DNA from: a phage
Strand: one strand, 5' to 3'
DNA: 64,000 nt
Sequence record: PZ452595.1
The notes beneath the pieces are model-generated. The model did not search any database. It was not told the DNA's origin and saw only the letters and a program-made list of their open reading frames with translations. Both the position numbers and the translations under genes were made by a program. How positions within the stretch are numbered: position 1 is the first letter of the stretch; the number at the start of each line of letters is the position of its first letter. This document shows positions 62,623 to 64,000 of this stretch, piece after piece.

Positions 62623-62775
62623 TCAATTAGTTGACTTTGTTATAATATCATCAGACGCTTGATTTGTAAACTGGTCTGTGTTATTTTCTTCAAAAATTTT
62701 TTCTACGAATTCCTTGAACGACTCACGTTCCTGAGCTACATTGTGCTCGATTACCTTTTCAAGATTATGACTCAT
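62623..62775 (-). CDS. Possible 50 aa acidic ORF between asiA and arn
   Basis: Hand-translated MSHNLEKVIEHNVAQERESFKEF...; its ATG overlaps the arn stop as ATGA. Confidence 0.35.
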   Translation of the reverse strand: MSHNLEKVIEHNVAQERESFKEFVEKIFEENNTDQFTNQASDDIITKSTN

Positions 62776-63050
62776 TCGAAATAATCTTCAATTTCGTAAT
62801 CATGGACATAAATCATTATAGTTTTTAATACATCATCAATACTTTTTCCTGGAGCTGGAATTACGTAAAAATATCCTACTTTTGAGAGGTCTTTATAAGT
62901 TCCAATTAAGAAATCGTTATTCTCAAGATGTAGTTCTTCAACTAATTCATTGACAATTGAATGGTATAGATTTGGTAGAAACTTATATAGCTTTTCTAGA
63001 ATATCAATTTTGATTGTGTATTGAACCACGGATTGAGAATCAATAATCAT
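62772..63050 (-). CDS. arn: Arn anti-restriction protein (McrBC inhibitor)
   Basis: 92 aa acidic protein in the T4 arn position. Confidence 0.75.
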   Translation of the reverse strand: MIIDSQSVVQYTIKIDILEKLYKFLPNLYHSIVNELVEELHLENNDFLIGTYKDLSKVGYFYVIPAPGKSIDDVLKTIMIYVHDYEIEDYFE

Positions 63051-63133
63051 AGACCTTCCCCTTATGTTTCTGTTTGCGATTAGATTCTTTAAACGCTTTC
63101 TTCTTATCCTTATGAACAGAAGCTTTATTAAAA

Positions 63134-63352
63134 TTATGTTTTGCGACTAAATTGTTCATAGTGCTGAATTACCTCTCTCAAACATTTGCATGTGAATGAA
63201 AACTTTTTAGCTACACCACATTCAAATATATGTTCTCTTAAATCACATGTATCGGTATATCCCATCTCAACAATAAAATGCCGTATTAGATTTTTATCTT
63301 TATCATTGAGAGAATTAAAATAATCAGATTTTGAATTAATTTCCCTGGCCAA
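63134..63352 (-). CDS. Hypothetical Cys-containing protein (arn.1 position)
   Basis: 72 aa ORF. Confidence 0.5.
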   Translation of the reverse strand: MAREINSKSDYFNSLNDKDKNLIRHFIVEMGYTDTCDLREHIFECGVAKKFSFTCKCLREVIQHYEQFSRKT

Positions 63353-63632
63353 ATTGAATCACCTTCAGTTGACGTTTTAGTTCTTTTATCATCTCTTCGT
63401 TCATTGCAATATAAAGATCGCGTAGAGCAGGTTTTAGCATTCCATTTACCGGAGAACTAAATGGGCATACATAATCTTTTCCTACGAGCTTTTTAGTGAA
63501 TTCCATATCACAGAACTTAAATCCCGGCTCATTGGTATAAATTCCCCAATTGGTTGACATCATTTTATTAGCATATTCCAGTGCCTGGATTTGATTCATA
63601 ATTCCATCAATTTGAAACTTTTTAATATTCAT
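63336..63632 (-). CDS. Hypothetical protein
   Basis: 98 aa ORF. Confidence 0.5.
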   Translation of the reverse strand: MNIKKFQIDGIMNQIQALEYANKMMSTNWGIYTNEPGFKFCDMEFTKKLVGKDYVCPFSSPVNGMLKPALRDLYIAMNEEMIKELKRQLKVIQFGQGN

Positions 63633-64000
63633 TAGTAAAGGTCCTCAGAGTAAAGTTCTTTTTCACTACCACCACGTTCAATACGTACTTGTCCAGCGTA
63701 AGTTGCAATAATCATTGCTTCTTCACGTGTCCAATAATTACTATATTGGTCAATAAACCCTTGGTCATCATCACAAACTTGTTGAGTAACTAATTGAGGT
63801 TTAACTACATCTAAAACTTCTGCCATATCTTTAGAATAATGACGAGCACCTGGAATAATAAGAGTTCGTCCATCTTTTAATTTAAAACGGTTGGCTGCAC
63901 AAACAATTCGTCGTTGATACTTTTGGTTTTCATCCCAATACGCAGTCTGCCAACAGATTTCAGGAACTTCATCTAAAACATTTTGTTCTGTATATTCACC
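63632..64000 (-). CDS. Hypothetical protein, possibly 5'-truncated by the window edge
   Basis: Track lists 63632..63826 (64 aa), but the same frame stays open from the window edge with no stop; true start may lie beyond 64000. Confidence 0.4.

Follow-up and report, generated by a model that had tools for sequence, protein, structure and literature searches.

Does the short reading frame at the very end of this phage sequence represent a small gene in its own right, or is it the visible part of a longer gene that the end of the sequence cuts off? The window, by which we refer to the whole 64,000-nucleotide stretch of phage DNA that was analysed (record PZ452595.1), has a 64-aa ATG-initiated ORF in its ORF list at 63632..63826 on the minus strand. 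The original prediction held that the frame of this ORF continues without a stop to position 64000 and that the real gene may be longer, with its start outside the window. It left the strand unstated, and as the gene is on the minus strand, "outside" in this case means beyond coordinate 64000. Translation bore out the open frame: on the minus strand, 63632-64000 encodes 122 amino acids before a TAA, with zero in-frame stops between 63826 and 64000, and the frame runs open right up to the window edge. Each of the other five frames has 4-18 stops in this stretch. The length of the open stretch is by itself not beyond chance: a run of 122 codons lacks a stop with a probability of 1.4e-4 per position, and when 64-kb windows (36% G+C) were shuffled, they held a mean of 1.35 open stretches of 122 codons or longer in the six frames combined. 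Therefore, it is due to homology and conservation (400 relatives; phrog_839), rather than length, that we regard the stretch as coding.

Identity and genome context of the open frame

We assign a probability of about 0.9 to the reading that the open frame corresponds to the 3' 80% of arn.3, an accessory gene conserved in the T4-like phages (Tequatrovirus), that the window edge cuts the full 153-codon gene, whose start at ~64093 would overlap the stop codon of arn.4, and that the 64-aa ORF is the portion following an internal methionine. The coordinates of these and neighboring features are collected in Table 1. arn.3 itself is an already known gene of T4-family phages. The confidence placed in its identity does not extend to the functional proposal considered at the end, which is tentative.

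Table 1. Features at the arn.3 end of the window, with strand and the basis of each assignment
Feature	Position	Strand	Basis
arn.3 codons 1-31 (93 nt)	expected 64001-64093, outside the window	minus	relatives
arn.3 codons 32-153 and TAA stop (63632-63634)	63632..64000	minus	translation; identity to annotated arn.3
Linker helix and beta-hairpin, Arn.3 residues 32-59	63917..64000	minus	model elements H36-42, E48-51, E57-60; alignment
T4_Y16D domain (PF26092), C-terminal, Arn.3 residues 60-153	63635..63916	minus	61-homologue alignment; PF26092 matches on homologues; models pLDDT 91
ATG listed as start of the 64-aa ORF, internal codon Met90	63824..63826	minus	alignment; no SD motif
arn.2, 98 aa, next gene downstream; ATG 63630-63632	63336..63632	minus	ORF list; annotation of relatives
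TTG-start ORF, 72 aa, between arn and arn.2	63134-63352	minus	
DUF7230 ORF, 39 aa (RB32ORF249c type), between arn and arn.2	63040-63159	minus	
arn, 92 aa, inhibitor of McrBC restriction	62772..63050	minus	annotation of relatives
gp38 adhesin ORF, T2/T6 type, glycine-rich motifs, TTG start, 262 aa	60862-61650	plus	

A megablast search with the last 1.7 kb of the window returned 638 phage records, 483 of which cover at least 80% of the query, with the best being 97-98% identical. Nearly all of the matches are Tequatrovirus phages of Escherichia, Shigella, and Yersinia and, judged from these matches, the window is a Tequatrovirus (T4/T2/RB51-like) genome. Over the arn.3 region, vB_Eco_Some and RB51 are both 97-98% identical to the window. 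The best homologue of the window peptide had an E-value of 3e-77 (cluster P0001), and the peptide is identical at 120/122 residues to Arn.3 of RB51, vB_Eco_Some, and Bas36 (BASEL phage Paracelsus), which for RB51 amounts to 98% identity over the visible 122 residues. Against T4 Arn.3, identity is 113/121 (93% of the visible part), rising to ~97% for the part that follows the N-terminal cassette described below. The gene measures 462 nt including its stop (153 aa) in RB51, vB_Eco_Some, and Bas36, where it occupies the same strand between arn.2 and arn.4, and 459 nt including its stop (152 aa) in T4.

The gene order of the window, t, asiA, asiA.1, arn, small ORFs, arn.2, and arn.3, follows that of the reference genomes, in which holin t is followed on the opposite strand by asiA, asiA.1, arn, arn.1-type ORFs, arn.2, arn.3, arn.4, and motA, with arn.4 and motA seen in the relatives only. 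arn.3 is found at the same place in RB51, vB_Eco_Some, T4, and Bas35-39, and its strand and its position between arn.2 and arn.4 downstream of motA are shared by arn.3 of T4 (NP_049871.1), RB51, RB32, RB14, and RB69. The window has TAATG (63630-63634) where arn.3 stops and arn.2 starts, with the TAA and the ATG overlapping; in vB_Eco_Some, the start of arn.3 shares the sequence ATGA with the stop of arn.4. Such stop/start overlaps are typical of translationally coupled phage genes. The proposal that the start lies outside the window is likewise supported, as the arn.3 ATG is located 93 nt past the edge in the relatives; for this phage, both the arn.3 start and the CmdA-like module discussed below are read from relatives, with codons 1-31 lying outside the window. 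In phage T2, arn.4-arn.3-arn.2-arn.1-arn share one middle-period transcript, which is abundant in infected cells and is bound at arn.2 by the host sRNA ArcZ (bioRxiv 10.64898/2026.06.19.733364). This 2026 preprint, which states the functions of arn.1 to arn.4 as unknown, was the only mention of arn.3 in the literature searched. Pfam and PADLOC searches with arn.2 were both without a match.

Several further features of the region were recorded. A T2/T6-type gp38 adhesin gene precedes holin t in the window, and the 39-aa DUF7230 ORF lies between arn and arn.2. The true start of gp38 is probably an internal ATG (MAVTGPW...), given that RB51 gp38 is 257 aa. The 72-aa TTG-start ORF is annotated at 57 aa in vB_Eco_Some and is unannotated in RB51. 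T4 has a different arn.1 between arn and arn.2, which makes this interval a small mosaic spot. Searches of the 64-kb window for tRNA genes (ARAGORN) and for Rfam families at gathering thresholds both gave zero matches. In the BASEL records of Bas35-39, arn.3 is located at ~66-68 kb, which suggests that the window is the start of a record having an origin similar to those records.

Two other accounts of the open frame can be weighed against this evidence. The 64-aa ORF is formally complete from ATG to stop, and it might be a real gene with the open frame upstream of it being untranslated. However, the 58 window codons upstream are conserved as protein and include invariant family residues (RIVCAAN, GARH), the start lies 89 codons further upstream in all annotated relatives, and the shorter product would miss half of the Y16D domain. 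There is also no GGAG-type Shine-Dalgarno sequence at a usable distance in the 25 nt (AGGTGCTCGTCATTATTCTAAAGAT) ahead of the ATG at 63826, and the corresponding Met90 (in RHYSKDM) is kept in at least 90% of 61 aligned homologues. Neither an in-frame stop nor a strong SD/ATG context at 63826, the two observations that the original prediction named as telling against a longer gene, was found. A separate 64-aa gene is already refuted by this conservation, and we give it practically no chance. The other account is that arn.3 is a truncated or frameshifted allele in this phage, with the defect being located in the 93 nt past the edge and no full-length protein being made. Short or frameshifted versions of arn.3 are on record (P0088, 104 aa; P0121, 40 aa; and P0021), but no defect is seen in the 122 visible codons, which share 98% identity with alleles that look functional, and the N-terminal query is covered to at least 80% by 798/843 related records, making a defective allele very improbable. 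An arn.3 gene cut by the window edge is the reading that we adopt. The 64-aa ORF is an artefact of the window edge and should not be counted as a small gene, because a known gene is cut at the window boundary. In this respect the finding is an ordinary one, as the gene is annotated in the T-even phages (T4 record NC_000866).

The C-terminal T4_Y16D domain

Arn.3 consists of two modules, an N-terminal two-helix cassette (residues 1-31) and a C-terminal T4_Y16D domain of ~95 aa that lies wholly within the window. Residues 32-59 are specific to the T4-like phages and are missing from short homologues. In a profile search, the window peptide matched phrog_839 at an E-value of 9e-73, a PHROGs family whose function is listed as unknown. 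The homology search with the window peptide retrieved 400 proteins, and a precomputed PF26092 match was present on 118/120 of the homologues listed. The Pfam name T4_Y16D suggests the UniProt entry Y16D_BPT4 for T4 arn.3. The Y16D core measures ~90-95 residues, is always C-terminal, and contains the motifs RIVCAAN, GARH, QGFIDQ, TREEA, GQ, and a terminal LYSEDLY-COOH. It invariably ends in ...SE[DN]LY, with Tyr153 always being the last residue. Sixteen positions are invariant in 61 homologues (V64, A66, A67, R84, H85, Q111, G112, F113, R123, A130, Q135, L147, S149, E150, L152, and Y153), and the window peptide has all 16 of these columns as well as the C-terminal SE[DN]LY end. By its invariant residues and its match to phrog_839, Arn.3 is classed as a member of the T4_Y16D family. 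The conserved residues are mostly polar (Cys/Ser65, Arg84-His85, Gln111, Arg123, Gln135, and Ser149-Glu150), and a Cys occupies position 65 in all but a few members, which have Ser there (P0070, L071).

The domain is widespread. A tblastn search found it in 1602/50,697 phage records (~3%) from many hosts. Most members of PF26092/phrog_839 are stand-alone proteins of ~86-110 aa from many unrelated phages, whereas the T4-like Arn.3 carries ~59 extra N-terminal residues. Full-length Arn.3 had nothing above threshold in Pfam-A (in a copy without the PF26092 model), NCBIfam, or PDB sequences, and no consistent Pfam relative of the domain emerged among the 42 members searched. A Prok-E2_B match was dropped, being weak (E 0.03-0.18) and recurring in just 2/42 members. 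AlphaFold predicted full-length Arn.3 with a pLDDT of 91.0 and a pTM of 0.74 and a 96-aa stand-alone member with a pLDDT of 91.2 and a pTM of 0.81; the predicted topology of the core is beta-beta-alpha-beta-beta-alpha. Foldseek searches of PDB with the full-length and core models gave no match at E < 0.001 (best E 0.045 and 0.39), and the best query-normalised TM-score, 0.36, was to a ribosomal-protein chain with an E-value of 4.2. Weak Foldseek matches to cytidine deaminase, the GlmS N-terminus, and MbtH-like proteins were taken as noise. Matches in BFVD were confined to uncharacterised phage proteins, together with weak matches within proteins described as "large polyvalent protein associated domain".

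We also examined the gene neighborhoods of Y16D members, using five informative loci from public assemblies and 80 IMG/VR loci (85 in total, 78 having a Y16D ORF), which dereplicated into 36 groups. Clustering by BLAST found no neighbor common to more than 4 of the 36 groups. RNA ligase 1 occurs within 8 kb in 5/36 groups and HD_4 in 2/36, and RNA-repair genes are present in 6/36 dereplicated loci, a count that has no control set beside it. Individual contexts (L003:3586-6297; L008:1-6291; L005:6001-6860; L021:3166-5300) include a kinase-phosphatase-RNA ligase fusion directly upstream of one stand-alone Y16D gene, PNKP and RNA ligase 1 within 5 kb of a Y16D gene at one locus, and HD_4 phosphohydrolases adjoining or near a Y16D gene at two loci. 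The association is weak, and we treat these neighborhoods as ordinary phage early or nucleotide-metabolism regions that imply no functional link.

The N-terminal cassette and its relation to CmdA

The first 31 residues of Arn.3 were read from near-identical relatives (L002:4201-4293(-)). Over this segment, the PADLOC profile PD-T4-9_B, which has 77 positions, matches with its own positions 1-31 in register at an E-value of 9e-9, and the match was found in six diverged N-terminal variants with E-values of 2.5e-10 to 9e-4, the T4 variant being the weakest. PD-T4-9 is the CmdTAC operon, which encodes an ADP-ribosyltransferase toxin together with its antitoxin CmdA, listed as a small "unknown protein", and a chaperone resembling SecB (PMC9519451). 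CmdA is described as having an N-terminal helix pair followed by a disordered tail that ends in the ClpXP degron LAA (PMC11618068). To compare the two proteins, we took the 5' end of cmdA from primers CV115, CV127, and CV128 (PMC11618068 supplement), and this primer-derived sequence located the cmdA locus in three complete E. coli genomes. In strain N2250, cmdTAC lies in a P2-like prophage between a replication gene and the portal gene, and its ORFs match PD-T4-9 A, B, and C at E-values of 4e-97, 3e-38, and 7e-61, respectively. The N2250 CmdA (locus L025:2517-2750) is 77 aa and ends in DLAA. Its BLASTP alignment with residues 1-32 of Arn.3 (E 3e-9) has 53% identity and 75% positives, and the AlphaFold model of Arn.3 places helices at residues 4-16 and 20-29. 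From sequence and predicted structure, we regard residues 1-31 of Arn.3 as a two-helix module homologous to the helix pair at the N-terminus of CmdA. The literature searched contained no mention of a link between Arn.3 and CmdA.

The likeness between the two proteins is confined to ~31 N-terminal residues with their two predicted helices (HMM E 2.7e-9), a part of Arn.3 that lies outside the window. CmdA continues into a disordered chaperone-addiction tail and the LAA degron, whereas Arn.3 has neither and instead has the folded Y16D domain and an EDLY end. Similarly, CmdA is encoded together with the ADP-ribosyltransferase CmdT and the SecB-like CmdC, while arn.3 has neither as a neighbor. Since the disordered tail and degron and the toxin and chaperone neighbors are all lacking, we do not consider Arn.3 to be a member of the CmdA family. 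PADLOC searches with arn.4 and arn.2 gave no PD-T4-9_A or PD-T4-9_C match, and Arn.4 was rejected as a CmdT-like partner (CmdT vs. Arn.4 BLASTP E 0.45; no PADLOC match). CmdA was not reached by a word-index search with the N-terminal 49 aa, by tblastn against plasmids, or by blastn against E. coli genomes, and a phmmer search of 1.8 billion representatives with the 40-aa P0121 returned repeat-protein noise and P0123 only.

The cassette appears to be exchangeable. The T4 type (MNPFINRLKMLNVPL...) and the RB51/Bas36 type (MKTFKERLALLDKAL...) agree at 44% of the first 41 aligned residues and at 97% of the remaining 111. The segment of the window that adjoins the cassette is of the RB51/Bas36 type, not the T4 type (YKCTEEDILKEV), and as residues 32-43 are of that type, an RB51/Bas36-type N-terminus is expected beyond the edge, for which the relatives predict the pattern MKTFKERLALLDKAL[SL]RETPESLAAKLASY[GS]. 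arn.3 is mosaic across Bas35-39 and T4 (L016, L017, L018, L019, L020, and L012). One family member of 203 aa (P0014) has two N-terminal modules in tandem. A CmdA/Arn.3-like module is also found internally, at residues 105-132, in the 320-aa gp063 of Klebsiella phage Geezett (L013:2698-3660; PADLOC E 2.7e-9). This is an unrelated 50-kb phage, and in its protein the module is followed by the motif PWDERIHS...DGTWRLRR.

Possible roles of Arn.3

Many GenBank records refer to arn.3 and arn.4 as "anti-restriction nuclease". Arn, the anti-restriction nuclease and McrBC inhibitor, shares a transcript and a gene-name stem with arn.3, but the two proteins have no sequence similarity (BLASTP E 26). We have accordingly rejected Arn.3 as a relative of Arn and regard the label as name propagation rather than evidence.

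As a tentative proposal, with odds that we place well below even for the whole of it, Arn.3 may be a host-takeover or counter-defence protein. Its Y16D domain would then act as a small enzyme or bind a ligand, and the N-terminal cassette, being exchangeable, would attach this domain to a partner, for instance an ADP-ribosyltransferase toxin like CmdT. The CmdTAC system of ECOR22 restricts most BASEL Tevenvirinae 100- to 100,000-fold, the only exceptions being Bas35 and Bas38. Both of these have the MKTF type of N-terminus, as does Bas36, which is restricted even though its cassette is the closest to CmdA. Bas37, Bas39, and T4 have the MNPF type and are all restricted. There is no clean correlation between cassette type and CmdTAC sensitivity among Bas35-39 and T4, and as Bas36 and the MNPF phages are all restricted, the module is no obvious neutraliser of the ECOR22 system.

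More specific readings compete with this proposal, and we consider none of them to be probable. A rather unlikely one is that Arn.3 is a stable antitoxin mimic, in which the CmdA-like hairpin would neutralise CmdT-type mRNA ADP-ribosyltransferase toxins after CmdA has been degraded, with Y16D adding stability or reversing the damage. Its 53% identity to the CmdA N-terminus would fit this role, as would its lack of the disordered tail and LAA degron of CmdA, its operon shared with a known anti-restriction gene, and a cassette that is far more variable than the remainder of the protein, as in an arms race; CmdA sequences are themselves reported to vary widely among otherwise homologous systems (PMC9519451). 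However, most T-even phages, Bas36 included, are still restricted by the ECOR22 system, T4 mutants that escape CmdTAC map to alt.-3 and not to arn.3 (PMC11618068), and the literature searched does not state which part of CmdA contacts CmdT. The presence of the same module in the unrelated Klebsiella phage protein also fits a generic helical hairpin, and a generic hairpin for docking or oligomerisation is at least as likely as an antitoxin mimic. Slightly less likely again is a modular form of counter-defence, in which the exchangeable hairpin would derive from an antitoxin and target CmdT-type toxins, Y16D, as an enzyme or binder of a new kind, would neutralise the toxin or repair the RNA damage that it causes, and the variation of the cassette would reflect an arms race with variable CmdTA pairs.

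Somewhat less doubtful than either of these is the possibility that Y16D serves phage nucleotide or RNA-repair metabolism as an accessory enzyme, with the N-terminal hairpin acting in oligomerisation only. The invariant polar residues of the domain and the Cys-to-Ser swap at position 65 (P0070, L071) suggest a nucleophile, and some homologues adjoin the ligase fusion, PNKP and RNA ligase 1, HD_4, dCMP deaminase, or NAMPT. Arguing against it are the low frequency of RNA-repair genes among the dereplicated loci, which is given above and has no control, fold and profile searches that linked Y16D to no enzyme family, and the location of the T4-like arn.3, which is not near pseT or rnlA. Of the readings set out in this section, the general proposal of a host-takeover or counter-defence protein is the one that we retain, at its tentative strength.

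From these results, two aspects of Arn.3 may be of interest to phage biologists. Y16D is a domain of ~3% of sequenced phage genomes with a confidently predicted fold that has no relative in PDB, and in the T-even phages it bears a cassette homologous to the antitoxin of CmdTAC, a defence that restricts these same phages specifically. The plating data from the one CmdTAC system tested lend no support to a mimic that binds CmdT. If the cassette truly binds CmdT-like toxins, Arn.3 would add one more to the antitoxin mimics that phages encode.
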